Origin: a virus
Taxonomy: Duplodnaviria; Caudoviricetes
Strand: one strand, 5' to 3'
DNA: 64,000 bases
IMG/VR virus record: IMGVR_UViG_3300019371_000256
Location: 8,224-72,223 of that record
In this document: positions 7,327-63,549 of the stretch, piece by piece
How positions within the stretch are numbered: the first letter of the stretch is position 1
Layout: each line of letters begins with the position of its first letter
The notes under the pieces: generated by a model
Database searches by the model: none
Seen by the model: only the letters and a program-made list of their open reading frames with translations
Told to the model about the DNA's origin: nothing
Position numbers and translations under genes: made by a program

Positions 7327-8733
7327 ATGATTAAGTATTTTACGGTATATGGTCTATTTGGAAAGTTTAAAAATGAAATAGTTTTTAATGAAAAAGAAAA
7401 AATCACTTTATTAATTGGACCAAATGGATGTGGAAAAACTACTACATTAAAAATACTAAAATGTGTTTTTATGGATACTCTAAAAGAATTATGGAGATTT
7501 GACTTTGAGAAAATTGAAATAGGGATTGAAAATTCAATCATCAGGATTGAGACAGATAAGGAGTATCCCTATTTACAAAAAAAAATGAATAGAAACAACA
7601 AGACCTTCTCGATTCATGGCGTATTTAAAATTTTTTTGAATGATAAACCTATGGAATATGTATATTCTAGAAATACAGATAAGTATTTAGAAAGAAATTA
7701 TATAAAAAATCATTACTATGAAGATGAGATTAGTGAAATTACGAAATTTAATCCATATATTGAAAGGAGTATAATAAAGGAAGAATATAATGATACTTCT
7801 GCAGCAATTGAGTTGAATTTTCCTGAAGAAATAAAAGTACTATTAGAAAAAGTTAAAATCGATTTTGTTTCAACTAATAGATTACTAAAGATGGATATAG
7901 ACGAAAATATTCCTTTACGTGAATTGAGAAATCGTTTTCGCTATGAAAATATGGTTGAAGTATATTCAAATGAATTAGTTAAAATGATTAAAGATACATT
8001 ATCTGAATATGCTAATATATCACAAAAATTAGATGAAGCTTTTCCGGGAAAAATATTTGAAGCTTTAAAAAATAATATATATTATGATGAAGATAAAGAA
8101 TTAGTAGAAAAAAAAATTGAGGAAATTAATACTCTAAGAGAAAAACATATTAAAACGGGTATACTTGAGAGCAATGAAACTACAAAATACATTACAGATA
8201 GTATTGATACTGTTGATTCTAAAACATTGCCTATATTAAAGGTTTATTATAAAGATACAGAAGAAAAATTAAAATCTCTCAATGATTTGTCTGACCGTAT
8301 TTTATTGTTTATTGATTTGGTAAATAGAAAATTAATGTATGGTAAGCAGCTTATTATAACAAAAGAAAAAGGAATTCAAATAACAGATGAAAAAGGAATA
8401 CAAATAACAGAAGAAAAAGGAATACAAATAACAAAAGAAAAAGGAATTCAAATAACAGATAGAAAGAAGATAATAGAACTTTCCCAATTATCCTCTGGAG
8501 AGCAACAAGAGATAGTTTTACTGTATCGGCTTATATTTTCGTCAAATGAAAATCAGTTAATCTTAATTGACGAACCTGAAATTTCATTGCATGTAGCATG
8601 GCAGAGACAATTTGTTGATGACTTAAAGAAGATTATTGAATTAAATAAAATGAATATATTAATTGCTACACACTCACCTCAGATATTAAATGATTATTGG
8701 AATCTAACAGTAAAATTGGGTGAGGTAGAATAG
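7327..8733 (+). CDS. ariA: ABC/AAA_21-type ATPase, PARIS AriA-like
   Basis: Walker A GPNGCGKTT, signature LSSGEQQ, Walker B LILIDEPE, H-loop ATHSP; directly upstream of a DUF4435 gene. Confidence 0.8.
   Translation: MIKYFTVYGLFGKFKNEIVFNEKEKITLLIGPNGCGKTTTLKILKCVFMDTLKELWRFDFEKIEIGIENSIIRIETDKEYPYLQKKMNRNNKTFSIHGVFKIFLNDKPMEYVYSRNTDKYLERNYIKNHYYEDEISEITKFNPYIERSIIKEEYNDTSAAIELNFPEEIKVLLEKVKIDFVSTNRLLKMDIDENIPLRELRNRFRYENMVEVYSNELVKMIKDTLSEYANISQKLDEAFPGKIFEALKNNIYYDEDKELVEKKIEEINTLREKHIKTGILESNETTKYITDSIDTVDSKTLPILKVYYKDTEEKLKSLNDLSDRILLFIDLVNRKLMYGKQLIITKEKGIQITDEKGIQITEEKGIQITKEKGIQITDRKKIIELSQLSSGEQQEIVLLYRLIFSSNENQLILIDEPEISLHVAWQRQFVDDLKKIIELNKMNILIATHSPQILNDYWNLTVKLGEVE
8356..8460 (+). 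repeat. In-frame 24-bp tandem repeat (about 4.4 copies, IT[KDE]EKGIQ) in the ATPase
   Basis: ATAACA(A/G)A(A/T)GAAAAAGGAAT(T/A)CAA units at 8356, 8380, 8404, 8428 and a partial unit at 8452. Confidence 0.95.
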
Positions 8734-44899: not shown

Positions 44900-45844
44900 A
44901 TGAGTAATCTGTTTGTTTTTGGTAATGGTTTTGATTTGGCTCATGGTTTTGATACAAGCTATGATGATTTTAAAATATGGCTTAGTGAAAAATATGATGA
45001 ATCATCAGATTCGTATGAGTCGTTTCCTAAATACAACACTAATTATAAAAGGTTTGAATCATTTAGTTTTGAAAGCATGTCTTATTTTTTCTATAATCTT
45101 ATTTACAATGTAGTTGGTAGTGATTGGAGACAATTTGAAGCAGCATTGTCAAAACTTGATTGGGTTTCAATAATCGAAAATGAATGTTATGGCAGTAATT
45201 ATAAAGAACGAATGTTCCAAGCTGAGGATATAGCTGTACAAATAAGAGATTTTGCTCACGTTTTAAAAGATAGTCTATTTAAAAGTTGGGCTGAGGAAAT
45301 TGACATTTCACACCCTAAGTCAATTTCAGAAGAACTTATAGGATTGATTGATAATGAACATGATTATTTCTTGAATTTCAATTATACTGATACACTTGAA
45401 AAACACTATAATATCAATAATGTTTGCCATATACACGGACAATCTTCTAAACATGATAGTTTGATCGTGGGACATTCGGGAAAAGATAAAATAGAGTTTG
45501 ATAGCTATTTGACTATTACTTATTCTTACATTCGACAGATTTATGAAGATTATCGAAAAGATACTAAAAACATATATAAAAAGCACATGGATTTTTTTAA
45601 TAAATTATATAATAATAATATTACTAATATTTATATACACGGTTTTTCATTTTCAGATGTTGATATGTTTTACTTAAAAAAAATCGCACTAAAACTAGAT
45701 ACTTCTGTGGTACGTATTCATCTACATAGCTATTTAGAGGAGGACTTTGAAGGCTTCAAAAAGAAACTCATTAGATGTGGATTCCATAATATTAACATTA
45801 TACAGTTTAGATTATCTGATATCAATGATGTATGTGAGATATGA
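44900..45844 (+). CDS. abiH: AbiH-family abortive infection protein
   Basis: LFVFGNGFDLAHG..TSY..F, FLNFNYTDTLE, HIHG, IHGFSFSDVD. Confidence 0.85.
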   Translation: MSNLFVFGNGFDLAHGFDTSYDDFKIWLSEKYDESSDSYESFPKYNTNYKRFESFSFESMSYFFYNLIYNVVGSDWRQFEAALSKLDWVSIIENECYGSNYKERMFQAEDIAVQIRDFAHVLKDSLFKSWAEEIDISHPKSISEELIGLIDNEHDYFLNFNYTDTLEKHYNINNVCHIHGQSSKHDSLIVGHSGKDKIEFDSYLTITYSYIRQIYEDYRKDTKNIYKKHMDFFNKLYNNNITNIYIHGFSFSDVDMFYLKKIALKLDTSVVRIHLHSYLEEDFEGFKKKLIRCGFHNINIIQFRLSDINDVCEI

Positions 45845-47621: not shown

Positions 47622-49112
47622 TTGGAGGATACAACGTTGATAACAGGCGAAGTGAGAAATAAGATAGATAAAATATGGACAGACATGTGGGCAGGAGGAG
47701 TAACGAATCCTTTGACAGTAATTGAACAGATTACATATCTGATGTTTATTCGCTCTTTGGATGAAAAAGAATTAGAGAATGAAAGCTTTGAAGCACTGGC
47801 AAGAGAAAAGATGGAAAAAATCTTTCCACAAGATGAAAATGGTCAATCCATGCGATGGAGCAGATTCAAAGATAAAGACGCCAGAGAAATATTTGAAATT
47901 ATTGGACAAAAGGTATTTCCATTTATTAAAAGTTTGAATGGTAATAATGCATCCGCATTCTCTAGATATATGGAAAATGCGATGTTTATGATTCCTACAC
48001 CACAAATTTTGCAGAAGATCATTACTGGATTGGAAGATTTGTACGAGCATGATTTGACAGGGCTTGATATGCAAGGTGATCTCTACGAATATATGCTGGA
48101 CAAACTTGCTACCGCGGGGCAAAATGGTCAGTTTCGTACACCAAAGCATATAAGAGAACTGATGGTGCAATTGGTAAATCCAACACCAGATGATACCATC
48201 TGTGATCCGGCTTGTGGAACAGCGGGATTCTTAGTATCGGCATCTGAATATATCAGAAAGAACTTTGAAGGGACTATGACAAGTGAGCAATGGGAGCATT
48301 TTGACAAAGGAGCATTTTCGGGATTTGATACGGACACAACAATGCTTCGTATCTCTGCAATGAATCTGATGCTTCATTCCATTAGTAATCCTGATATTGA
48401 TTACAAAGATAGTGTATCAAAACAGAATGAGATTATTTCAAAATATACGGTGTGCCTTGCAAATCCACCATTTGCAGGAACTGTAGATTCAGAGAGTATT
48501 AATGACAATCTGAAAGCAATCTGTAGTACCAAAAAGACAGAGCTTCTATTTGTGGCATTATTCCTTCGTATGCTAAAAAAGGGTGGAAGATGTGCATGTA
48601 TCGTACCAGATGGAGTTTTATTTGGTAATTCAAAAGCTCATAAAGAGTTAAGAAGAGAACTTGTTGAAAATCAACATTTACAAGCAATCATATCTATGCC
48701 GAGTGGAGTATTTAAGCCATATGCAGGGGTATCAACCGCAGTTTTGGTATTTACAAAGACAGATGATGGTGGAACGGATAAAGTCTGGTTCTATGATATG
48801 AAAGCGGATGGAAAGAGTCTGGACGATAAACGTCAGGATACGGATAAAAATGATATTCCTGATATTTTAGAACGCTGGAATCATTTAGAATTAGAAACGG
48901 ACAGAGTAAAAACAGAACAATCCTTTTTTGTAACAAAGAAGGAGATTGAGGAAAATGAATATGATCTGTCGATTAATAAGTATAAAGAAGTAGTCTATGA
49001 AAAGGTAGAGTACGATTCATCAGAAGTGATTATGGAACGAATTGATAAAATTGATGAAGAAATTGTTGTACTGAAAGCGGAATTGAAAACATTATTAAAT
49101 TTAGATTTGTAG
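47622..49112 (+). CDS. hsdM: Type I R-M methyltransferase subunit
   Basis: GQFRTP, DPACGTAGFL, NPPF; intact. Confidence 0.95.
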   Translation: MEDTTLITGEVRNKIDKIWTDMWAGGVTNPLTVIEQITYLMFIRSLDEKELENESFEALAREKMEKIFPQDENGQSMRWSRFKDKDAREIFEIIGQKVFPFIKSLNGNNASAFSRYMENAMFMIPTPQILQKIITGLEDLYEHDLTGLDMQGDLYEYMLDKLATAGQNGQFRTPKHIRELMVQLVNPTPDDTICDPACGTAGFLVSASEYIRKNFEGTMTSEQWEHFDKGAFSGFDTDTTMLRISAMNLMLHSISNPDIDYKDSVSKQNEIISKYTVCLANPPFAGTVDSESINDNLKAICSTKKTELLFVALFLRMLKKGGRCACIVPDGVLFGNSKAHKELRRELVENQHLQAIISMPSGVFKPYAGVSTAVLVFTKTDDGGTDKVWFYDMKADGKSLDDKRQDTDKNDIPDILERWNHLELETDRVKTEQSFFVTKKEIEENEYDLSINKYKEVVYEKVEYDSSEVIMERIDKIDEEIVVLKAELKTLLNLDL

Positions 49113-49114
49113 GG

Positions 49115-50269
49115 ATGATTGATATGGAGATTAAAAAACTTAAAGATATAAATGAATATTCTAGCCAAAGTGTAAATCCTTCAAAATCGCCAGATATTGT
49201 ATTTGAAGTTTATAGTGTACCAAGTCATGCAGACAACAAACCAGAGTATCTTCGCGGTGATGAAATTGGTTCAACAAAAGTAGTTATTGAAGAAGGTGAT
49301 ATTTTGCTATGTAAAATAAATCCAAGGATTAATAGAGTCTGGGTTGTAGATAAATCGTCTGAACATTTGAGTGTTGCTTCATCTGAGTGGATAGTAGTTA
49401 GAAGTAAAGAAAATAATCCAGAGTATTTGGCGTGGTATTTTAGATCTGATGGATTTAAAACTCGTATGAATAGTGGTTTGACTGGAATTGGTGGATCATT
49501 AACACGAGCACAGCCAAAGCGAGTAGCAGATTATCCAGTTCCAATTAGAGAAAGAAAAGAACAAGATGAAATAGTATTAGTTTTAAATAAAGTAAATAAA
49601 ATAATAGATAGCAGAAAAGAACAGTTAGAACAGATGGATAACCTAATCAAATCCCGATTTGTCGAGATGTTTGGGGATCCTTTAAGTAATCCAATGGGCT
49701 GGGAAGAAGTTGTTATTACAGAGCTGTGCGAGAAAATATGCGGTGGTGGTACACCTTCAAAATCTCATCCAGAGTATTTCGTGGGGCGTATTCCTTGGGT
49801 GTCACCGAAAGATATGAAATCTATGGTTATTAGAGATAGTCAAGATCATATAACTGAAGAGGCCATTAAGAATAGCTCAACGAAGATTATTCCAGAAAAC
49901 TCGGTACTTATGGTAATAAGGAGTGGTATTTTAAAACATACACTTCCTGTTGCTATTAATGCAGTGCCTGTGACTATTAACCAAGATATGAAAGCTTTTA
50001 TTCCAGGGAAAAAAATACTTACAACATTTTTGATGAACTACTTTAAAGCGATAGAACCAGATGTATTAAGCGGTGTAAGAGGAGTAACGGCTGATAATAT
50101 CGATTTCAAAGATTTTCAAAAAAGACTGGTAATTTTACCACCAATTGAAATTCAGAAGCAATTTGCCAACTTCGTCCAACAAGTCAACAAATTGAAAATT
50201 GAAGTACAGAAATCATTGGATGAAGCGCAGGTATTGTTTGATTCGTTGATGCAAGAGTATTTTGAGTGA
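49115..50269 (+). CDS. hsdS: Type I R-M specificity subunit
   Basis: Two TRDs; SRFVEMFGDP, GGGTPS, PPIEIQKQFA. Confidence 0.92.
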   Translation: MIDMEIKKLKDINEYSSQSVNPSKSPDIVFEVYSVPSHADNKPEYLRGDEIGSTKVVIEEGDILLCKINPRINRVWVVDKSSEHLSVASSEWIVVRSKENNPEYLAWYFRSDGFKTRMNSGLTGIGGSLTRAQPKRVADYPVPIRERKEQDEIVLVLNKVNKIIDSRKEQLEQMDNLIKSRFVEMFGDPLSNPMGWEEVVITELCEKICGGGTPSKSHPEYFVGRIPWVSPKDMKSMVIRDSQDHITEEAIKNSSTKIIPENSVLMVIRSGILKHTLPVAINAVPVTINQDMKAFIPGKKILTTFLMNYFKAIEPDVLSGVRGVTADNIDFKDFQKRLVILPPIEIQKQFANFVQQVNKLKIEVQKSLDEAQVLFDSLMQEYFE

Positions 50270-50291: not shown

Positions 50292-51697
50292 ATGACAAAT
50301 GAATATGAAGAACAGAATGCATATAAAAAAGCATGAAATTGTTTGTACGATTTTGTAAAGATATGAATATCACAACTAAGGAGCAACTTTCAAACTTTAC
50401 TTTCGAAGAAATTCCTTCTGAATATAAATATAAATATAAATATGGAGCCTCTGATGAAATCAGAGCTTCTGATGATCCTGATAATACACAAATAATAAAT
50501 GCTATTTATATAATTTTATGGGGAGAATTTTTTGATATAAGAGATAAGAAAGATGTTGGTTCTTAGTCTGATAGTAAAAAAATAGAAGGTAGTCAGTCAT
50601 CATACAGAGGCGACACAATGAATAGTTTTTGTTCTATGTTTGGAAGTGATGATACAGGATGGAATAGAATGAAGCATATTCTAGGTGTGGAAATCGATAA
50701 TGACTGGTCTGATATAATAAAATTTAGAAAAATTTATCATACATTAGGAAATTTTTTACTTATTCCAAATAGAAAAAATGTAAATAGAGTAAAAGGTACC
50801 TCTGGCAGACTAACAGACAGTTTTGAGACACTTTTATCAAATGCATATATGTACTATAATGAAAAAGAAAATGGAACAAATAAGCTTATTATGTGTGGTT
50901 ATAGAAAGGTTTTTGAAGAAAATATAGAATACAAGAATACATATAATGAAGATTTTTTGTTTAAATTAAAATATTTTATTTGCAAGATTATTATTATAAT
51001 GAAGGAAAGCCAACAGTCAAGTTTAAATTTAGTTTCAGAAGGGAAAAAAGGCTTAGCTGATTATGTATCTACAAATTTGAATACTGATGAATATTATACA
51101 CGAAGTCATTTGCAAAAATTGGATATCATACAGACGGTTGGTTCGGCTTCTTGGTTAGGCATAATTAATGACAAAGATTTATTTCAGGAAAGCTTGGATT
51201 GGTTTCGAGGATATATAAATTTTATTTGTGAAAAGATAGGATATGAGTTGCTTTACCAAATGATCGACAATTGTAGAAGTATAAATGAAAATAAAGATTC
51301 ACAATTAGAAGCGTCATTGTGTTATGGAACATGTATGTATATTTGTTCATTTATTGAAAAAATATTAAAAATAATATACATAGAACTAAAAAGAGAAATA
51401 GAATATATTCCAATTGAAAATATAACTTTAGGGGAATTGCTATCAGACGGGAATTCATTGTATGCGGAAATGTTAGGAGAATATCAATTAAAGCATTTAA
51501 GATATTTTCTATTGACAGACGGCGATAAAAAAATTGGTACAAATTATCGTAATTCACTGGCACATTATAGTTCAATTACTTCTGAGAATATTAATATGTT
51601 TCTTGTTGGAAAACTAATGTTTCTTTTTACAAATATAATAACATCATTTTTTCATTACTTTTTTATGAAACAAAGTGAAGAAAATATAGATAATTAG
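50292..51697 (+). pseudogene. Interrupted nuclease-like + HEPN (DUF4209-like) gene between hsdS and hsdR
   Basis: ORFs 50333-50566 and 50618-51697 are in frame across TAG 50564-50566; possible frameshift near 50330; YRGDTMNSF, HTLGNFLLIP and C-terminal NYRNSLAH (RxxxxH). Confidence 0.65.
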
Positions 51698-51707
51698 GGG
51701 AGGATAT

Positions 51708-54700
51708 ATGTCAAACTTCGAATTCTTAACATCAAAAACAGAATATGAGCTTTTTGCAGTAGCGTGCGTTGAGGCGGAGAAGGTCTTGACATCATCACCT
51801 GCCATGAGTGCAGTAGGAGCTAGAAAAGCATTAGAACTTGCTGTGAAATGGGTATATTCCGCTGATAACTCAATTTCTATCCCGTACAAAGATAACTTAC
51901 AATCATTGATTCATGAACCAAGTTTTCGTTTTGCCTTGGATAGTAAGACATGGGGCAAGATGCCATTTATCATTAAATTAGGTAATTTGTCAGTACATAC
52001 GGATAAGAAGGTGTCAAAAAGTGACGCTGTTTTATCATTACAAGGTTTGTTTGAATTTGTAGAGTGGATTGATTACTGTTACGGAAATGATTATCAGGAA
52101 CGTAACTTTGATGAAAAACTGATTCCAGGTGAAAAAGTCGCTGTTGATGTATCAAAAATCAAAGAGCAGGAGAGTTTACTTTCTGAAAAGGAAAGTGAAA
52201 TCAAAGCCTTAAGAGAGAAAATTGAGGCGATGTCTGCTACCTATACTGCTGAAAAAGGGCAGCATAAAGAAGAAAGAACTTTTACTGCGAAAGATTTATC
52301 GGAGTTTAAGACGAGAAAAAGATACATTGATGTAGATTTAAAATTGTTAGGTTGGGATTTTGACCATGATGTAAAAGAAGAATTTGAAGTACAAAATATG
52401 GATGGAAAATCAGGTCAGATGTGATATGCTGACTATGTTTTGTTTGGCAAAGACGGTCTTCCATTGGCGATTATAGAAGCAAAGAGGACAAGCAAAGACC
52501 CGAATATCGGAAGGCAGCAGGTTTTGCTTTATGCCAAGTCTTTAGAAGAGCGTTATGGACGCCGTCCTATGATGTTTACCACGAATGGGTTTGAAACCTA
52601 TTTCTGGGATGATGAAAGCTATCCTCAGAGAAAAGTCAGCAGTATTTTTTCCAAAAATGATTTGCAGAAGTTGATGAATCGAAGACAAGAGAGAAAAGAT
52701 TTATCAACCATTCGCATAGATGATAAGATTACCGATCGCTATTATCAGAAAGAAGCGATCAGAGCAGTATGTGACAGTTTGGTGCAGGGGCATAGAAAAA
52801 ATCTTCTCGTGATGGCAACTGGTACAGGCAAGACCAGAACCGCTTCCAGTTTGACAGATGTATTGTCAAGAGGGGGCTATGTTACCAACGTTTTATTTCT
52901 TGCCGACAGAACGGCATTAGTAAAACAGGCAAAAGATGATTTTAAAAATTATCTTCCAGATATGAGCCTTTGTAATTTGCTGTCCAATAAGGAGGATAAG
53001 AATGCAAGAATCATTTTTTCTACCTATCCAACTATGTTAAATGTCATTGATTCGGAAAAGACAGAGGATGGACAGCGATTATTTTCTCCATCCCATTTTG
53101 ATCTGATCATAGTAGATGAAGCACATAGAAGTATCTTTAAGAAATATCGTACCATTTTTGAATACTTTGATTCAATTGTTGTAGGATTAACTGCTACGCC
53201 AAAAACAGATGTCGATAGAAATACCTATGATTTTTTTGAAATGGAACATGGGGTTCCGACCTATGCATATGACTATGAAACTGCTGTGAATCATGATTAT
53301 GTGCTGGTGCCATATTTTAACATTGAAACATCAACGAAATTCTTAGAGGAAGGAATTTCATACGAAGAGTTGGATGAAAAAGATAAAGAACGTTACGAAG
53401 ATGATTTCGGTGATGATGAAGGAAATATGCCAGAATTTGTGCCTTCACCTACCATGAATAAATTTGTATTTAACGAAAAGACAGTGGATTTAGTGTTGCA
53501 GGATTTGATGGAAAATGGAATCAAGGTTGAGGGCGGAGATCGAATTGGAAAAACAATCATTTTTGCTCAGAACAAGACTCATGCTGAATTTATTTTAGAA
53601 CGATTCAATAAATTATATCCAAAGCTGAAAGGTGGATTTGCAAAGCGCATTACTTGCGAAGATACCTACGCCCAGTCTGTCATTGATGAATTCAAGATTG
53701 CGAATAAGCCACCATATATTGCAGTTTCTGTCGATATGATGGATACCGGTATCGATGTACCAGAAGTAGTCAATCTTGTATTCTTTAAGAAAGTGCGCTC
53801 AAAGACAAAGTTCTGGCAGATGATAGGACGTGGAACCAGACTGTGCAAAGACCAGACTTTTGTTGACAGACAGGATGGAGAGTATACAGATAAAAAGAGA
53901 TTTTATATTTTTGATTACTGTGGAAATTTTGAGTATTTCCGTGAAAATAAAGAAGGTATTGAAGTAAAAGATACAGAAAGTTTGAGCGAAAAGAGTTTTA
54001 GCAAAAGAGTCCGATTGATACAAAATCTTCAATCATCAGATTTCTTAGGAACGGAATACCAGAACTGGAGAAGTGAGCTTGTAAGTACTGTGCTACAGCA
54101 AGTACAGTCACTCAACAAAGAACTGGTTGCTGTACACATGCAACTTCGTCATGTGGAAAAATTCGAAAAGCAAGAAGCATTTACTTGTATCTCAGAACAG
54201 GATTATCATGATTTGTCCAGGCATGTAGCACCATTGGTAACGATGGATGATAAAGATGAGTATGCAAAGCGATTTGATAATCTGATGTACGGCTTGATGA
54301 TTGCTCAGATGGAGATGTTACCAGGATTTAAGAAAGCGAAAAATCAGGTCTACACATTGATGGGAGCATTGGAACAAAAAGCAATTATTCCTAAGATTAA
54401 AGAAAAACTTTCTTTGATTCAGACGGTAACAACAGATGAGTTCTGGGCTTCTGGTGATATTTTGCTTTTTGAAAAGATTCGAGAGGAATTAAGAGATTTG
54501 ATTAAACTTACAGTGGATGAGGGCACTGGTAAACGCCCGATTATGACAAGTCTTGCAGATCCTATTCTATCTAGAAAAGAAGGCGATATATTAGATGCAG
54601 CATATGATTTTGAAGATTACCGGTTAAAAGTGAATCGATACATAGAACAACATAAAGATCATATTGCAATCTGGAAGCTTCGAAATAATGTAAAACTGGA

Positions 54701-55076
54701 ATCGGGAGACTATCAGGCACTCGAAAGCATCTTTACAAAAGAACTGGGCGATGAAGAAGATTACAAACGAGAGTTCGGAGATACACCATTTGGTCTTCTT
54801 ATCCGTAAGATAGCAAAGCTTGAGCATGAAGCTGCGATGAAAGCATTTTCTAAGTTTATCAATGATGAATCATTGAACCAACAGCAGATTGTTTTTGTGA
54901 AAAAGATTGTGGATTATGTGGAGCAGAATGGATACATAGAAAATATAACGGAACTGATGAAACCGCCGTTTGATAAACCAATGAGCTTTGTGAAGCTGTT
55001 TGATAGTAAGAGGCAGGCTGAGATTGTGAAGTTGGTGAATGAGATTAAGGAAAATGCTGTGGAAGTGGCGGGGTAA
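51708..55076 (+). pseudogene. hsdR: Type I R-M restriction subunit interrupted by an in-frame TGA (52422-52424)
   Basis: ...GQM-TGA-YADYVLFGKDGLPLAIIEAKR; MATGTGKT, DEAH, QMIGRGTR motifs otherwise intact. Confidence 0.9.
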
Positions 55077-55751: not shown

Positions 55752-56252
55752 TTGGTATTTTTATTAATTTTGAACAGAGAAATATTATCAACAGACAACC
55801 AATTTTACATATCCGAAAATATTAAAATAGATCAAAAAATGTTTAACATATCAGAATATATCTATTTTAAGAAAAATAGATGCAACCCAATTCAGATTAG
55901 TGTTTACGAAGATAAAATGTATGTCTGGAATGATGGTGTTATGCCTATGAACTTAACATCTACCGAAAAGTTATTTCAAAAGCATTCTTCAAAACCATAC
56001 AATCCAAAACTGGCTGATATCTTTTTTAAGAGCGGTATGATTGAAGCGTGGGGGCGTGGATTTGATAAAATCAAAGAAGCATGTCAGAAGTATGATGGCC
56101 CATTGCCAGAATATGATATAAGCGAAGATGGGATTATAGTTCTTTGTAAGGCTTGTGGGAGATATCTGGATTTATTATATGGTAAACCAGAAGTAAATAA
56201 TTCGCTCTCTTCAAATGAGCGAAAAACAACGAACAATAAAAAACAAAGGTAG
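55752..56252 (+). pseudogene. Fragment of an AlbA/HATPase_c_4 (RecG-C-like) regulator
   Basis: PIQISVYEDKMYVWNDG, SKPYNPKLA.IFFKSGMIEAWGRG; N-terminal domain and HTH missing. Confidence 0.7.
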
Positions 56253-56558
56253 TTAAAGTAGTAATACTAAAGATAACTTCTGAATCATATAAGTCCCCAT
56301 CAATTATTTGAAATTATTTTTGAAATAATTGACGCAATTAAAAGATAAAACTATGGAACTAATTACTGATTTTGAGAAATTAAGCAAAGCGATTTTGAAA
56401 AAATATGAAGGCAACAGCATAACAATGGGAATTCAGGTTGCAGATTATCGTCAAAGTGAAGCTAGAGAATATATGTTAAATTATTTGAATCATTTGATTC
56501 ATTTGATTCAGTTAATTATGGGTAGGGTGGTTTAATTAGTCAATGAGGTAAAAGTACA

Positions 56559-57494
56559 ATGATTGAGTTTAGTAATTTTTCAAAAGGGCAAGAGGATTTC
56601 TTTCTTGTGAAATTTATAGATGATAATAAGGATGAGATTAACATTTTATTTGATGGGGGGATTAGCTCAAAAAAATGTTTAGAACATATAAGAGATGATG
56701 TCAACGGAAAAGTGGATTATATTATATTAACACATATAGATCAGGATCACATAAAAGGTTTATTAAAGTTGTATACTAAGGCAGAGGATTATAATCTGAA
56801 AAGTAAGTTAAACGATACCGTCTTTGTATATAACAGATTTGTAAATGGACTAGTATCATATAATCAAGCGGAAGCATTTGAAGAAATGATACAAGGAAGG
56901 GAAATTATTTGTTCTTATAAAGAGTATCAATACAATTCTGGAAATGCAATTTTTTTAAGCGCTGAACAAAGAAGAAAACTTCCTAAAAAAGAAAAAAATC
57001 AAATCTATATTACCTTTTTGTCGCCAACAGATCGTAAAGAAATAGAACCACTCTATGACTACTATCAACAGTATAAGGAAAAGAGCAAGAATCCAAGTGG
57101 AAACGCATACGTGGTAAATAAAAGCTCTATTATGTGTCTTGTTGAATATGAGGAGTCATTATTACTAATGGCGGGTGATGGATATTTTAAAGATATTCTT
57201 CCTACGATTAAAATTCTTACTGGTTCACAGACAATATGCCCGATTTCAAAGAATGCACTAATAAAAATTTCACATCACGGCTCTTCAGAAAATAATGAAG
57301 GTCTTGATGAAATCATAAGAATAATACCATGTGATAAATTTGTACTTACAAATGTGGAGGAAGCTCTTCGAGATAAAAAAAATTCTGTTAAAGTAGATGA
57401 TGACATTATAAAGTTGTCACAGACAAAATCTGTTTATAGTAATTCGGACTACAATGGGCTAAAGATAACGAGAGAACAGAGTATAAGTTTATAA
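56559..57494 (+). CDS. MBL-fold (ComEC/Rec2-like) hydrolase
   Basis: LFDGG, THIDQDHIKG, LLMAGDG, KISHHGS. Confidence 0.9.
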   Translation: MIEFSNFSKGQEDFFLVKFIDDNKDEINILFDGGISSKKCLEHIRDDVNGKVDYIILTHIDQDHIKGLLKLYTKAEDYNLKSKLNDTVFVYNRFVNGLVSYNQAEAFEEMIQGREIICSYKEYQYNSGNAIFLSAEQRRKLPKKEKNQIYITFLSPTDRKEIEPLYDYYQQYKEKSKNPSGNAYVVNKSSIMCLVEYEESLLLMAGDGYFKDILPTIKILTGSQTICPISKNALIKISHHGSSENNEGLDEIIRIIPCDKFVLTNVEEALRDKKNSVKVDDDIIKLSQTKSVYSNSDYNGLKITREQSISL

Positions 57495-57536
57495 ATAATA
57501 TTATAATTCAAAAGAAGAAATGGGGACAAGAACAGT

Positions 57537-60500
57537 ATGGATATTAATCAAAATATTGTCAGAATCCGAACAGCTATGCAAATGGGAACAGGGATAATAT
57601 ATCCTTGCGAACCAAGAAATGGAAATCTTGGAGAACATAATTATATTATTTTTACAAATAAGCATTTGGTAAGTGATATTCCATTGTCAAGGAGTGAACG
57701 AAATGGAGAAGATCTTCTAAAGTATTTTCAGTTTGATATTTACGATAAAGAGGGTAGAAAATTAGAGATTAGTTCAGGACAAATGGATAAGGATAAAATC
57801 AGCGCTGAATTATTTTATACTTCCCTCAAAAACGAAAAGTTAGAAGAAGTGAGCCCAAACATGAATTGTGTGGAAGACATTGCAGTGATACTGTTGTCTT
57901 TTCATCGAGATATTGATCTTGATTTAGAAACAAGACTTTTGTGGGGAGGGGAAGAAATTGATAGCATCTGCATGGAAGGATTTCCGGAAGTATTATCAGA
58001 CAATGATATTTCATCGAAGCTATTAGTGAAAGGAATCTATAAACCGGTTTTCCCGTCAAACTCTAGAATAGGAGTGTTCCAAATTACAGACGATTATCAT
58101 TGGTATAACAATTATAAGGATTATCGGCTGTTTCAAGGTTTTTCGGGAAGTCCGATTTTTCAGAAGCTTCATGACAGAGGAGTACGTCTTTTAGGGATGA
58201 ATCAGTCTGTTTTAAATATTGAAAACGGCGAAAATCCTTTTAAGCTTATGTACTATTATAAAATGCCTTTTATACTGGAATATTTACGAGAACAGGGATG
58301 TATTTTGTTTAGTAGAGAGAAGGATGAATCTGTAAAGATTCGATGGATTGCAGAGGATAATAGTAATGGTGATGCAATTACTGTTAATCAGCCGGCAGGT
58401 GGAAAAACTACTGAGCTGACACTACTATTATTAGGGGCAAGTGGTGCGGGTAAATCATCTTTTGTAAAAAGTTTTTTACTTCATTCTAAATATATAGATT
58501 CCACAAATGATGGACAGACAACGAGATCCAGTGTTATTTATGATATAAGTAAGTATCAGGAGAAACCAATAGCAAAAATCAAGTTTTTAAACCAAAAAAA
58601 ATTTGTTCAGTGCATGAAGTTTTTGAATTATCATAATTATTTGTATCAGCTGTGTTTGTCTGCATTTGGCGAACAAAAGGAAAAATCACTGGAAGGATAT
58701 TTGAGGTATTTTTGTTATGATTATTCCGTACAATTCACTAAAGATAACCCGGAATTAGAAAGTAAGATAAAAGAATGCAATACGAAAATTAATAATCTTT
58801 TTTATGAAAAGGTTAAAAAATTAAATAGAGAAGACATGGAGTACAGATACTATATAGATAATTTGGAAAAGTTGTGTGAGGAGATACTTCAGTTGAAGTT
58901 TAGTGAAAACAAGCATTGGAACGGATCATTTGTTTTCAGTCAAACGGAATTTTTTAAGACATTAGAAGAGCAAGAGAAACTCAAAAGTCGATTTTTCAAA
59001 ATGTTAGATTCGGTAGAAGGCTTTTTTGATAAGTCTGAGTTTGCTTTTTTAAATGACATCAAAGATGCGGGACATTCTGCAGAAAGCGATTCATTGTATC
59101 GTGAATTAGAACTGGAGGAAAATCAGGGTCTACTAGACTTATCAAAATCAATTCAAGGTTATTTTGAAGAATATTATAAGAAGATGCACCGTGAAATTAT
59201 AAAAAAAATAATTGCAAAGTATCTAATGAAATCCAAATCCTATGAAGTGGAATTGCAGTTGGATGAGTTATTTGAACAGAAGATTTTATTAACGTATGCA
59301 TTACAGAAAAAGGGAAACTTTTCATTAACAGGGATGGTTGATTCAGTGACTATAAGTGACAGTATATCGAATGAGTATGCATTTATATTTGATGATTTAA
59401 AAATTGATAAACTTAAAATGATAGATACCTATGGATTAGATCATGCAGACTGGAATGCAGACAAAAAAAGTGTTCTTAGCAATATGGTTTACAATCTAAA
59501 TGAGGAAGATATTCTAAAATTTGATTCTAATCTAGCAGTAGTATATGTAAAAAAGCTTGATTCGGGCAATCCAACAGAATTACATAATATAATTCCGGCT
59601 GTTTTTGAATTAATCCCTATGGCACCTATTTATTGTGTATTTACAGGACTGGATATTTTTGTGGGATCAGATATTAACAAATTTAAGTCAGTAGAGCATT
59701 ATTTTAGAAATAATAGAGAGCCCAAGAACTATGGATATATTGAGAGCGTGGTATTTGAGGAAGAAATAAAGAATATCTTTAGTAAAAAAAATGCTGAATA
59801 TGTAGATAGTTTATACTCTACAATGAAGAATAATCTTATTGCTATTTGTTCAGATGAGAATACTGTAAAAAGCTATTTTAATCTTTATGCGAATAATAGA
59901 GATGAAGTGTATAAATTATTGACTTCTATTTCTATGAATGAATATTCCAATATGGTAATTATACCGGAGGATGTAATAGCTGAAATTGATTTAAACAAAA
60001 ATGCTATTAAAAATTTTTTAGGAAACGTATTTGAGATTGCCAATGTAGATTGGACAAGAATCCATTGGAAAACTGCGCAGGCTAATTTTACTCGAATTTC
60101 TGGACAGTCAGAGTTAGGCTATTGGGGAACATTTCCACATCAGTGGAATCAGCTGTTTCATATGGGATATACCAGCACAGTGATAAACTCAAAAGGTGAC
60201 ATTTTAGGGATCTCTAAGAAACTGAAAAAAGAGGTTGCGTCAGCATTAGATTCCTGCATTAGAGATATGGAGTATTTATTCTTAGGAGATCCAAAAAGTC
60301 TAAGTGGATTCAAGGATGGAGACTCTAAGTTTCGGAAACTACTAGAAAAAATGTATGACTTAGGTTATAAATCAGGTACATATAAAATTAATCCGTTTGA
60401 TTTATATGAAAAAAAAGAACTTTTGGGTAAGATGAAAAGTAAAGGGGAGCGAGATATTGAAAAGCAACGGATTAAAGAAGAACAAGAAGAAAGATTGAAG

Positions 60501-60785
60501 AAAGCGTATGGCGATACAGGTGATAGAGATCTTGAAAAAACGTTCTTGATTGATATTTGTAATTTTTCGAAGGGATTTGATTATATTTCGAATGAGTTAT
60601 GTGATTTATTCATTGAGTCTTTGAAGAAACAAATTAATATTACAAATACAAAAAAAGCAGAATGTATGATTAAAATAAACAGAGAATTTATAGCAGAATA
60701 TTTGGATGCAAAATACAAGTTTGAATCTAAATATAATAATGTAAAATTTGAGACACTAATCAAGGCATATATTGATGCAAAATAA
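57537..60785 (+). CDS. Trypsin-like serine protease fused to a dynamin-like P-loop GTPase
   Basis: Triad FTNKH / EDIAV / GFSGSP; G1 GASGAGKS, G2 QTTR, G3 DTYG, G4-like FTGLD; long helical regions. Confidence 0.8.
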   Translation: MDINQNIVRIRTAMQMGTGIIYPCEPRNGNLGEHNYIIFTNKHLVSDIPLSRSERNGEDLLKYFQFDIYDKEGRKLEISSGQMDKDKISAELFYTSLKNEKLEEVSPNMNCVEDIAVILLSFHRDIDLDLETRLLWGGEEIDSICMEGFPEVLSDNDISSKLLVKGIYKPVFPSNSRIGVFQITDDYHWYNNYKDYRLFQGFSGSPIFQKLHDRGVRLLGMNQSVLNIENGENPFKLMYYYKMPFILEYLREQGCILFSREKDESVKIRWIAEDNSNGDAITVNQPAGGKTTELTLLLLGASGAGKSSFVKSFLLHSKYIDSTNDGQTTRSSVIYDISKYQEKPIAKIKFLNQKKFVQCMKFLNYHNYLYQLCLSAFGEQKEKSLEGYLRYFCYDYSVQFTKDNPELESKIKECNTKINNLFYEKVKKLNREDMEYRYYIDNLEKLCEEILQLKFSENKHWNGSFVFSQTEFFKTLEEQEKLKSRFFKMLDSVEGFFDKSEFAFLNDIKDAGHSAESDSLYRELELEENQGLLDLSKSIQGYFEEYYKKMHREIIKKIIAKYLMKSKSYEVELQLDELFEQKILLTYALQKKGNFSLTGMVDSVTISDSISNEYAFIFDDLKIDKLKMIDTYGLDHADWNADKKSVLSNMVYNLNEEDILKFDSNLAVVYVKKLDSGNPTELHNIIPAVFELIPMAPIYCVFTGLDIFVGSDINKFKSVEHYFRNNREPKNYGYIESVVFEEEIKNIFSKKNAEYVDSLYSTMKNNLIAICSDENTVKSYFNLYANNRDEVYKLLTSISMNEYSNMVIIPEDVIAEIDLNKNAIKNFLGNVFEIANVDWTRIHWKTAQANFTRISGQSELGYWGTFPHQWNQLFHMGYTSTVINSKGDILGISKKLKKEVASALDSCIRDMEYLFLGDPKSLSGFKDGDSKFRKLLEKMYDLGYKSGTYKINPFDLYEKKELLGKMKSKGERDIEKQRIKEEQEERLKKAYGDTGDRDLEKTFLIDICNFSKGFDYISNELCDLFIESLKKQINITNTKKAECMIKINREFIAEYLDAKYKFESKYNNVKFETLIKAYIDAK

Positions 60786-61334: not shown

Positions 61335-62597
61335 ATGTTAATTGAATGTGAGAATTTGAGCTTTAAAGAATATAGTGAATCTGGTTATAAGATGACGGAA
61401 GAAGAAATTGATAAGAAATATCAAGATGGGGAATTAAGAATAATAACGGAGCAGGGAAGGTATCCATTACAGAACATAATAGATATTTTAAGTAAAAATA
61501 TTCAATTTAATCCAGAATATCAGAGAAGGAGAGTTTGGACAAATGTTCAAAAATCAAGACTGATTGAGTCTTTTATAATTAACGTACCAATTCCACCAGT
61601 TTTTTTATATGAAATAGATTATTCTAAATATGAAGTGATGGATGGTTTGCAAAGATTGTCGACAGTATATGATTATTATACTGATAAATTTAAACTTGAG
61701 GGATTGGAAATTTGGAAAGAGTTAAATGGTATGACGTATAGTCAATTGCCTAATAAGGTTAAAAGTGGTATTGACAGAAGATATATTTCTACAATAGTTA
61801 TTTTAAAAGAAACTGCTAAAAATTCAGAAGAAGAGCAGATTCTAAAAAAGTTTGTTTTTGAGAGATTGAATACGGGGGGAACTAAACTAACGGATCAGGA
61901 AACAAGAAATGCATTATATAATGGACCAATGAATCAATTGTGTATGAAAATAGCAGATGAGTGTTCGGATTTGCATAAACTTTGGAACATAGCTCCTTTT
62001 AAGCCAGCAGATTTAATAAAGCAAGCCAATTTAGAAAATGCTGAAGATGAAGATAATGGTGAAACAGATGATGAAAGTTCAAATAAGAACATAAAGACAT
62101 ATATTAGAATGGAAGATGTTGAGTTGGTATTAAGATTTTTTGCATATCGTCAATTAGAGGAAAATCCGGCAACCAAGGTTAAAGACATATTGGATTTATA
62201 TTTGAAAGAGGCTAATAAACAGTATGATGAAAATACAATTAATGAACTAGAAAAAATATATTATAAAGTATTATACTTAGCGGATAAAGTTTTTGATGTA
62301 AAAGCATTTTCTATGTATACAAAGAAGAAAAATGGAGAATATTCATGGAATAAATCGCCATCAAAACTGGTATATGATCCAATGCTAAATGCATTGTCTG
62401 ATTATATTGATAATGTTGATATGGTAAGAATTCTAGTCATTTATAAAGATGAAGTGATTAAAAAAATTGAAGAAATGTTTGTTAACAATACAAAAGATTT
62501 TAATGGGAGAAACAATAATAAAAGTGATGTTATAAGACGAAAAGCTTTTTATAAAGGAATTTTTGATTCAGTTATACAGGAGCATGCTAATGAATGA
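61335..62597 (+). CDS. DUF262 (GmrS/ParB-like) domain protein
   Basis: NPEYQRRRVW, SRLIESF, VMDGLQRLST, FERLNTGG.KLT.QE.RNA. Confidence 0.9.
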   Translation: MLIECENLSFKEYSESGYKMTEEEIDKKYQDGELRIITEQGRYPLQNIIDILSKNIQFNPEYQRRRVWTNVQKSRLIESFIINVPIPPVFLYEIDYSKYEVMDGLQRLSTVYDYYTDKFKLEGLEIWKELNGMTYSQLPNKVKSGIDRRYISTIVILKETAKNSEEEQILKKFVFERLNTGGTKLTDQETRNALYNGPMNQLCMKIADECSDLHKLWNIAPFKPADLIKQANLENAEDEDNGETDDESSNKNIKTYIRMEDVELVLRFFAYRQLEENPATKVKDILDLYLKEANKQYDENTINELEKIYYKVLYLADKVFDVKAFSMYTKKKNGEYSWNKSPSKLVYDPMLNALSDYIDNVDMVRILVIYKDEVIKKIEEMFVNNTKDFNGRNNNKSDVIRRKAFYKGIFDSVIQEHANE

Positions 62598-63549
62598 TAT
62601 TATTGAGTTGAGAGACGAATTTCTGAAACAGATAAACAAACTTTTGAACTATGTGAAATTACTTAATGATGATGAGAAAGCATACTACAGAAATAATCAA
62701 GAAATTTTATACGTTGGGATAATAAATAGGTCATATAGTTTGTGGGAAACATTTAATAAAGACTTACTATATGCATATTACCTTTTGATGAAAGATACTT
62801 TAATTAGAGAGGGGAATTTAGTTCAAAGGCTTAAACTGTATGAATTACCTGGATATATATTTGAAGATGGAACTTATGATAATATCAAAAACTCTATAAA
62901 CTTTGAACTGAAGAAGGATTTTATCACATATACAGGTAAAAATATGGATACATCTCAATTGAAGTCGTTATACGGAAGGTTTGACATAAAAATTGATAAT
63001 AAATTAGCCAATAGCAAGGTTATTAGAGAATTTCTAACTGATAAGGAAAGTTTATTCCAAATAAATGATATAAATAAAAGCCATGTAGATCAGGCATTGA
63101 GCAGATTAATTCAAGAGAGAAATATAGTTTCGCATTATTCAACAATAGATGACTATCAAAATCTCGAGACAGTAAAAATATGGATTGAATTTTATCAAGT
63201 TGTTGCAAAGGAATTGAGTAAAATTGTATGCTGTAATTATTTAAATACTGTTTGTACTAATGCAGAACAACTGGGTAAATATGTAGGATTTTACAAGAAA
63301 AAAAATTTACTTTTAATTGATGTCAACAGTGATATAGCAGTAACAAATAATTCATATATCGGCTTAGCTAATCAGGATACATTAGAACAAGTATTAATAC
63401 CTGTTAGTTTTATGGTTAATGATAATTGTGTTGAGCAGGTAACGAAAAACGATAAAGCAGGTATACAGTTATTATCGATTTTTGATAATGAGTGGAACAT
63501 TAAGCCTACAAGTAACTTAATTGTATTGGATAAAGAATTGTTTCGATAA
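62590..63549 (+). CDS. HEPN protein (MAE_28990-like) with a C-terminal extension
   Basis: YSLWETF, LIQERNIVSH (RxxxxH); overlaps the DUF262 stop. Confidence 0.75.
   Translation: MNDIIELRDEFLKQINKLLNYVKLLNDDEKAYYRNNQEILYVGIINRSYSLWETFNKDLLYAYYLLMKDTLIREGNLVQRLKLYELPGYIFEDGTYDNIKNSINFELKKDFITYTGKNMDTSQLKSLYGRFDIKIDNKLANSKVIREFLTDKESLFQINDINKSHVDQALSRLIQERNIVSHYSTIDDYQNLETVKIWIEFYQVVAKELSKIVCCNYLNTVCTNAEQLGKYVGFYKKKNLLLIDVNSDIAVTNNSYIGLANQDTLEQVLIPVSFMVNDNCVEQVTKNDKAGIQLLSIFDNEWNIKPTSNLIVLDKELFR

Follow-up and report, generated by a model that had tools for sequence, protein, structure and literature searches.

Introduction

The pairing of a trypsin-like protease with a metallo-beta-lactamase-fold (MBL) hydrolase was described in 2025 as a protease-activated pro-nuclease module that occurs in Avs, Hachiman, Lamassu and DRT systems (PMC12799240; PMC12642450; 10.1101/2025.09.03.673762). 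Tuck et al. found the MBL to be a gated proenzyme nuclease that is cut after conserved Ile residues, with artificial dimerisation of the protease being sufficient for activation (PMC12799240), and Evans et al. described double cleavage at Ile-Ser sites, between the two residues, and a Zn-dependent dsDNA nuclease (PMC12642450); Ile-Ser is the published cut site of module MBLs in both of these studies. Our study compared with this module a two-gene operon of 4.2 kb in a 64,000-nt stretch (hereafter the window) of the IMG/VR virus record IMGVR_UViG_3300019371_000256 (Duplodnaviria; Caudoviricetes; positions 8,224 to 72,223 of that record). The first gene encodes an MBL-fold hydrolase (P0001) and the second a fusion of a serine protease with a large GTPase (P0002).

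The sensors reported to be fused to the module comprise 29 STAND families, Hachiman, four ABC-3C types, two DRTs, a retron, SPARTA, Dsr2 and '20 uncharacterized types' (PMC12642450), to which Huang et al. added Argonaute and 'ABC-like' partners, together with the finding that ATP inhibits the protease (10.1101/2025.09.03.673762). There was no mention of a GTPase or of dynamin in the texts of PMC12799240, PMC12642450 and 10.1101/2025.09.03.673762, and the supplementary material of PMC12799240 held no GTPase, dynamin, Clostridium or Butyrivibrio entries. Literature searches combining GTPase or dynamin with trypsin or MBL found no paper. The architecture may nevertheless be among the '20 uncharacterized' or 'ABC-like' sensor types of the published surveys.

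The locus appears to be the known trypsin-MBL effector module under an undescribed class of controller, a large dynamin-like GTPase. A sequence-only reading had put it forward as a candidate new defence system that matched no named one. Its expectation that the large protein would receive no assignment was borne out, as PADLOC v2.0.0 assigned no system to P0002. The proposal is supported in part. Its novelty stands for the GTPase controller, which is apparently undescribed in the searchable literature and databases, and falls away for the MBL-trypsin half, which is an already characterised and widely shared effector module. By analogy with the described module, the operon is probably a two-gene anti-phage system of the abortive-infection type, in which a known effector module would be coupled to the undescribed controller.

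The MBL hydrolase and the protease

P0001 is ComEC-like and matched PADLOC models from three of the systems that carry the module, namely the LmuA hydrolase of Lamassu (1e-29, full length), RTasMBL of DRT (1e-21) and Avs1a (1.5e-15). Its match to Pfam Lactamase_B was just over threshold and much weaker than these matches to defence MBLs. Against the NCBIfam Avs1a equivalog NF041809 it scored 68.8 bits, far under the cut-off of 420 bits, because of which P0001 is a relative of Avs1a rather than an Avs1a. The MBL motifs that had been read from the sequence (H59-x-D61-x-D63-H64, D207 and H239-H240-G) are present and invariant among relatives; in an alignment of 30 MBL sequences (A3), the invariant positions were D13, D32, H59, D61, D63, H64, S100, N187, S190, D207, H239, H240 and G241.

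The AlphaFold2 (AF2) model of P0001 had a pLDDT of 86 and a pTM of 0.89, and its best solved match by Foldseek was the MBL (nuclease) domain of ComEC (9ic4, 6e-8), with the phosphorylcholine esterase Pce in second place. ComEC and Pce have also been named as relatives of trypsin-associated MBLs in published work (10.1101/2025.09.03.673762). Single-sequence PDB searches with the MBL and the protease were unproductive, giving Apyc1 at 0.014 and a RecF match that was spurious.

The least confident part of the P0001 model is the loop at residues 91-100 (pLDDT 65), where Avs-type MBLs carry a longer insertion. All 22 GTPase-linked MBLs compared have I or V at position 99 of this loop, followed by an unvarying S100. 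A flexible loop that bears such a conserved (I/V)-S pair is a further likeness to the published module. By analogy with the sites reported there, the protease probably cuts after I/V99. A second loop of lower confidence, at residues 171-180, likewise corresponds to long insertions in Avs-type MBLs. Two observations weaken the case for such a gating scheme in P0001: its loops are much shorter than both gating loops of the characterised Avs- and Hachiman-type MBLs, and a search of P0001 for a second cut site found none that was clear, loop 171-180 being short.

The N-terminal domain of P0002 carries the complete serine-protease triad that the sequence-only reading had recognised, with H43, D114 and S203 (the last in GFSGSP) invariant in 53 full-length relatives (alignment A1). 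The family profile matched V8-type glutamyl endopeptidases and HtrA/DegQ in the PDB, and Trypsin_2 was reached by five relatives (best 1.8e-7). As with the MBL, the protease matches models of known module carriers, here those of the Lamassu and Avs2 proteases: stand-alone proteases at two related loci (L004 and L007) matched the PADLOC LmuA protease model at 1.7e-6 and 8e-12, with a match to the Avs2 N-terminus at 0.0027, and P0076 matched the LmuA protease model at 2.7e-11. The effector pair and the gene order are also those of AVAST type 1, in which an Avs1a MBL is combined with a protease-STAND fusion.

The GTPase part of the fusion protein

The locus departs from the published module in the partner of this effector pair, which is a TRAFAC GTPase and not a STAND protein, helicase, ABC/SMC protein, reverse transcriptase, Argonaute or Dsr2. 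The G1-G4 motifs that had been listed from the sequence are real. G1 is G300-ASGAGKSS, switch I/G2 is D325-GQTTR, with T328/T329 conserved, G3 is D630-TYG, and the true G4, going by the strand order of the model, is F702-TGLD. In an alignment of 54 relatives, distant ones included (A4), D630, T631, G633 and D706 were invariant, D706 being found in 100 % of them down to the most distant. KKLD 672-675, which has the look of a classical G4 but stands at the end of strand b4, was conserved among close relatives only and aligns with the YxDRLD box of Toc34. Written as GxxxxGKSS, GxxTR, DxxG and TxLD, the motifs of P0002 presumably resemble those of dynamin, namely GxxTR at switch I and TxLD at G4.

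Residues 285-1082 were folded with AF2 from a 93-sequence alignment, giving a model with a pLDDT of 89 and a pTM of 0.90, in which the long helical regions, proposed as stalks from the sequence, are predicted with high confidence. The six top entries of a Foldseek search against the PDB were all bacterial dynamin-like proteins (DLPs), at a probability of 0.97-0.99 and E values of 2e-4 to 3e-3. They included SynDLP (7zw6, 2.3e-4, probability 0.99), BDLP (2j69, 3e-4), a Campylobacter DLP and IniA, and the alignments to BDLP and SynDLP spanned 630-950 columns. Eukaryotic dynamins and Mx, G-alpha, GIMAP7 and LeoA ranked below the bacterial DLPs. A VIA-align search, exhaustive over 48,161 representative chains, had TRAFAC GTPases in all of its 50 best places (Z 11.2-13.7), among them mitofusin-2 (Z 13.7, 236 residues), GIMAP7 (13.4, 180), IniA (13.3, 222), Toc33 (12.9, 202) and SynDLP (11.8, 279). 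A second VIA-align search placed mitofusin-1 first (Z 13.8) over 308 residues, reaching model residue 754, which lies in the C-terminal helices. No STAND, ABC or SMC chain occurred among the Foldseek matches listed or in the top 50 of either VIA-align search. The sequence databases gave weak matches limited to the P-loop (nSTAND1, ABC_tran, RsgA and MMR_HSR1). We regard the predicted fold of the P0002 NTPase as firmly that of a TRAFAC-type GTPase.

These results bear upon two more conventional explanations. The sequence-only reading had contrasted its proposal with a STAND/NACHT NTPase, which would make the locus an ordinary Avs1; the predicted fold matched TRAFAC GTPases only. An AVAST type 1 or 2 (Avs) system with a divergent STAND NTPase would agree with the matches of the MBL to Avs1a models and with a weak Pfam nSTAND1 match (E 0.005) at residues 295-349 of P0002. 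However, that match covers the P-loop only, P0002 matched no Avs model, the Avs1a equivalog score of the MBL is the low one given above, and neither a TPR nor any other repeat sensor domain was detected. The fold searches and the motif analysis led us to reject the STAND/Avs reading, which we consider extremely improbable.

The other explanation, and the one first suspected, was a Lamassu/ABC-3C hydrolase and protease system in which P0002 would be an SMC-like, LmuB-like ABC ATPase. LmuA models are the best PADLOC matches of the MBL and of the stand-alone proteases, the P-loop, long helical insert and hhhhD strand are superficially like a split ABC head, ABC_tran was weakly matched on the P-loop, and a published survey has an 'ABC-like' class of trypsin-MBL systems (10.1101/2025.09.03.673762). 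Against this, P0002 had no LmuB or SMC match and no ABC family match beyond the P-loop, and no ABC, SMC or Rad50 chain was among the top 50 VIA-align or the listed Foldseek matches. P0002 also has the DxxG and TxxD motifs and lacks the signature motif and the Walker-B Glu. As the fold searches and motif analysis give a GTPase, the Lamassu reading was rejected too, and we hold it to be very improbable.

Within the TRAFAC GTPases, a dynamin/mitofusin-like placement is the best supported by the model, although it is not exclusive, because the G domains of GIMAP, Toc and Roc tie with it on Z. The earlier description of P0002 as a dynamin-like GTPase holds in so far as the fold searches rank bacterial DLPs and mitofusins best. 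BDLP, SynDLP, Campylobacter DLP1/2, IniA, LeoA, MFN1/2 and Fzo1 provided the best Foldseek and VIA-align matches (Z 13.3-13.8) and the longest aligned (222-308 residues). They share with P0002 a large G domain with additional elements separating G2 from G3, and long helical bundles assembled from segments far apart in the sequence, whereas P0002 differs in an insert of ~210 aa inside the G domain, an N-terminal protease and the lack of any paddle or transmembrane segment that could be found.

Three observations count against an exclusive dynamin-like placement, and with them that part of the earlier description is left qualified. GIMAP7 (Z 13.4-13.7), Toc33, Roc and G-alpha matched the G domain alone at Z values similar to those of the dynamin-like proteins. 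The best PDB match by sequence profile was Toc34 (1.5e-5), over the P-loop and the DTxGL...YxxRLD stretch. Pfam Dynamin_N was weakly matched by 15 of the 54 members and never at its cut-off (best 26.0 vs 27 bits). On a separate point, G4 carries Gly at the position held by Lys in most GTPases, because of which the guanine specificity of P0002 is uncertain. The Toc34 profile match and the GIMAP7 Z values are the points of likeness to the GIMAP/AIG1-Toc34-septin group; the helical architecture of P0002 is much larger than in that group and fits dynamin-like proteins better. The placement relative to the GIMAP/Toc/septin clade is not settled.

Two further GTPase-based groups were compared. Eleos (LeoA/LeoBC) likewise relies on large dynamin-type GTPases and belongs to defence islands, but there the GTPase genes are paired and come without a protease or MBL. 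The PADLOC LeoA and LeoBC models gave no match to P0002 at E <= 1, and there is no second GTPase gene in the locus; the single match of the PADLOC Eleos models, limited to the P-loop, was to a distant relative (P0194, 3.9e-4). TRAFAC GTPases are known as switches in conflict systems, peptidases included, and the DO-GTPases described there differ from P0002 in having a defining GAP1 partner, zinc ribbons and a Walker-B glutamate, which are not found here (PMC7159879).

The remainder of P0002 is largely helical. The insert follows the b2-b3 hairpin and precedes the strands that lead to G3, and E501 within it was present in 100 % of the 54 relatives, although part of the insert is missing from shorter ones. 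The C-terminus of ~370 residues is entirely helical, with N787 and G861 invariant. Family-library scans of P0002 found no recognisable ligand-binding or repeat (TPR) domain, and a sequence scan found no transmembrane-like or hydrophobic stretch outside the core strand of the G domain; P0002 may bind membranes through amphipathic segments.

These features are relevant to whether the GTPase senses infection at all. It could instead be a threshold or timer switch, a monitor of nucleotide levels (in which GTP holds the protease off and its loss or hydrolysis releases it) or a co-effector that acts on membranes as other bacterial dynamins do, with the effector half of the system unchanged. The absence of a recognisable ligand-binding or repeat domain from the scans is in keeping with this, as are the general description of immunity TRAFAC GTPases as switches and the behaviour of trypsin-HamAB, in which ATP inhibits until DNA-stimulated hydrolysis occurs (10.1101/2025.09.03.673762). 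However, there are invariant residues away from the nucleotide site (E501, N787 and G861), which suggests that some other conserved surface has a function too, and the scan of P0002 revealed no hydrophobic or transmembrane segment fit for the membrane insertion that a co-effector would need. We consider a GTPase that is not the infection sensor to be unlikely.

In a language-model atlas, residues 285-1082 of P0002 lay near clusters named 'virulence effector SrfC' (PF10139; 0.95). Pfam PF10139 (SrfC/Virul_Fac) itself had no match in this genome, and none in the control genomes either; SrfC may be remotely connected with this GTPase family.

Conservation and linkage of the three parts

Among 1.84 billion protein cluster representatives, P0002 had 158 relatives at E <= 1e-3, and the organisms named for them were Clostridia, plus one Chengkuizengella. 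When 399 genomes sampled from the class of the host were scored, two carried the family, one of these being the host itself.

An MBL of the same clade lay directly upstream of the protease/GTPase in all ten other loci that had upstream DNA (L001, L002/3, L004, L005, L006, L007, L012, L013, L014 and L016/17), and this linkage persisted to ~25-30 % identity of the large protein. The conserved pairing that the sequence-only reading called for was therefore found, and it extends to an association of MBL, protease and GTPase. In three of these ten loci (L004, L007 and L012), the protease has a gene of its own, which stands between those of the MBL and the GTPase; the fusion is therefore a variable state of one three-part system.

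The surroundings of these loci bear on a different explanation, that the operon is not immune in function and serves either a mobile element, as its addiction or competition module, or DNA uptake or turnover, through a processing protease and a ComEC-like nuclease. The closest solved fold of the MBL is ComEC, some database relatives are named ComEC/Rec2, and several loci lie among housekeeping genes. Such surroundings, with no other defence gene nearby, were seen at L002/L003, at L012 and partly at L013, and a tblastn search with P0002 against phage and plasmid collections gave no match; both findings tell against a defence role. On the other side, the MBL and protease fall in clades whose action in defence has been demonstrated by experiment (PMC12799240, PMC12642450), and the system is rare, patchily distributed and without the membrane channel domain that ComEC needs. 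Most loci also adjoin restriction-modification (R-M), BREX, Abi or SIR2 genes or transposon cargo. Defence or mobile neighbours include BREX genes (PglZ and BrxL) upstream at L001; a methyltransferase, DUF4062 and DUF2971 at L004; a recombinase and a ResIII-DUF3427 helicase at L005; IS110, an AAA_21 ATPase and RadC at L006; and a YobI ATPase, a resolvase and TnsA at L007. A role outside immunity is in our view decidedly unlikely.

In Clostridium yunnanense, the system is closely followed on its downstream side by a gene for a 433-aa reverse transcriptase (RVT_1; L013:9987-11288), which may be of either the group II intron or the defence kind.

Related GTPases beside caspase-like genes

The P0002 family also includes distant stand-alone GTPases of ~700-730 aa, which match P0002 at E values of 1e-5 to 1e-11 and for which PADLOC holds no family. 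In three of the four loci examined, a gene for a caspase-like protease (Peptidase_C14, 280-313 aa) is directly upstream of the GTPase gene and adjoins or overlaps it (L008:1440-4387, L018:4054-7163 and L020:4088-7199). One of these GTPases (P0194, in L008) lies inside a type I R-M/AbiE island, another (P0190, in L018) in an unannotated region, and the third (P0216, in L020) in Tn7-like cargo beside the SIR2 protein of the PADLOC candidate PDC-S65. The fourth (P0180, 656 aa; L010:140-3805), on a short contig, follows a DEAD/ResIII helicase gene and has a weak Pfam DLP_helical match (3.3e-4). No MBL was found in any of these four loci.

Since caspase genes stand directly before the GTPase in three of the four sister loci, what stays constant beside this GTPase family is a protease, whichever its class. 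This pattern suggests that the family is dedicated to controlling proteases. It is possible, and we propose it tentatively, that an unnamed dynamin/mitofusin-like GTPase family, mostly of Bacillota, is a dedicated immune switch that licenses proteases, either a trypsin-like one that unlocks an MBL pro-nuclease or a caspase-like one in the sister branch.

Integrity of the operon and its genomic surroundings

Both open reading frames (ORFs) lie where the sequence-only reading had placed them, on one strand with 42 nt between them, and each is preceded by a purine-rich ribosome-binding site of the GAGG/GGGG type (Table 1). P0001 and P0002 align end to end with their relatives, and a single codon-level pairwise comparison with an 85 %-identical metagenomic homologue gave dN/dS values of 0.17-0.32 across all parts. 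On account of both findings, the two genes look intact and under constraint, which agrees with the earlier view of an intact two-gene operon. In the comparison of window positions 57537-60782 with L021:653-3931, dS was uneven: the protease domain had 0.09, the GTPase and C-terminus had 0.30-0.33, and the partial MBL had 0.51. Because dS differs among the parts of the operon, this one sequence pair suggests recombination between modules. A 68-aa ORF without a family match is located directly upstream of the MBL gene (window 56329-56535).

The pair is flanked by AbiH, type I R-M, NsnA/GmrSD-like and HEPN genes, so that the description of the surroundings as a defence island is upheld. The same description had the neighbours decayed, which is correct for hsdR, interrupted by an in-frame stop, and for the HATPase_c_4 fragment, but not for hsdM, hsdS, AbiH and the NsnA-like gene, all of which look whole. 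The hsdR stop falls just before the YADYVL...EAK nuclease motif and divides the gene into two pieces that share a frame, one of 238 aa with DUF4145 and one of 878 aa, and the HATPase_c_4 fragment is probably the remnant of a longer regulator. Between hsdS and hsdR is a 359-aa ORF (50618-51697) that has a weak DUF6994 match and no PADLOC family. The NsnA-like gene overlaps the RiboL-PSP HEPN gene (61335-63549 together), and these may form a separate two-gene defence unit.

Table 1. Features of the MBL-protease/GTPase operon and of neighbouring defence genes, in window coordinates
Feature	Position	Strand	Size	Remarks
MBL-fold hydrolase P0001	56559..57494	+	311 aa	Predicted ComEC-like pro-nuclease effector; family and fold matches
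Metal-binding motif H59-I-D61-Q-D63-H64 of MBL	56733..56750	+		Residues invariant in A3
V99-S100 of MBL, candidate protease cut site	56853..56858	+		Low-confidence loop; dipeptide conservation; putative assignment
Protease/GTPase fusion P0002	57537..60785	+	1082 aa	
Trypsin-fold serine protease domain	57537..58388	+	aa 1-284	Triad H43 57663-57665, D114 57876-57878, S203 58143-58145
G domain part 1	58389..58592	+	aa 285-352	Strand b1, P-loop G300-S308 (58434-58460), switch I D325-GQTTR (58509-58526), b2-b3 hairpin
Helical insert in G domain	58593..59222	+	aa 353-562	AF2 helices, model positions 69-278; E501 in GFFxxxEFxFL
G domain part 2	59223..59681	+	aa 563-715	G3 D630-TYG (59424-59435), KKLD 672-675, G4 F702-TGLD (59640-59654)
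All-helical C-terminal region	59682..60785	+	aa 716-1082 plus stop	Presumed stalk/sensor; model helices 421 to 797
AbiH	44900-45844			
hsdM	47622-49112			
hsdS	49115-50269			
hsdR	51708-52424 and 52440-55076			Split by in-frame stop 52422-52424
HATPase_c_4 fragment	55752-56252		166 aa	
NsnA/GmrSD_N-like gene	61335-62597			PADLOC NsnA 4e-61
RiboL-PSP HEPN gene	62563-63549		328 aa	

Proposed mechanism and significance

In the anti-phage system that we propose, the MBL would be made as an inactive or weakly active ComEC-like pro-nuclease, and the GTPase-stalk part of P0002 would detect an infection cue. This cue would bring about nucleotide-dependent dimerisation or oligomerisation of P0002, as is usual for the action of dynamin-type and GIMAP-type G domains, and the N-terminal protease domains would be activated by their juxtaposition. 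The protease would then cut the loops masking the MBL active site, probably after I/V99, and the freed Zn-dependent nuclease would degrade the DNA of the infected cell and abort the infection. The zymogen logic, the cutting after Ile and the activation by oligomerisation are carried over by analogy from the Hachiman and Avs modules, and it is the sensor or switch role of the GTPase, the trigger, the cut site and the anti-phage role that we infer for this locus. The order of events suggested by the sequence-only reading, in which the sensor oligomerises, the protease becomes active and the MBL is activated in turn, matches the 2025 results on the protease-MBL pair of Hachiman and Avs.

In summary, a large GTPase controller would give the protease-activated MBL nuclease, which is otherwise coupled to STAND, helicase, SMC, reverse transcriptase and Argonaute sensors, a mechanistically different input, and with it the trypsin-MBL module would have its first sensor of the GTPase class. 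As related GTPases are paired with caspases elsewhere, the family may define a general logic in which a GTPase licenses a protease, paralleling animal and plant immune GTPases. If the tentative proposal of a dedicated immune switch is true, these proteins would be a prokaryotic counterpart of the eukaryotic immune GTPases (Mx, GBP, IRG and GIMAP), wired directly to a proteolytic cell-death pathway.

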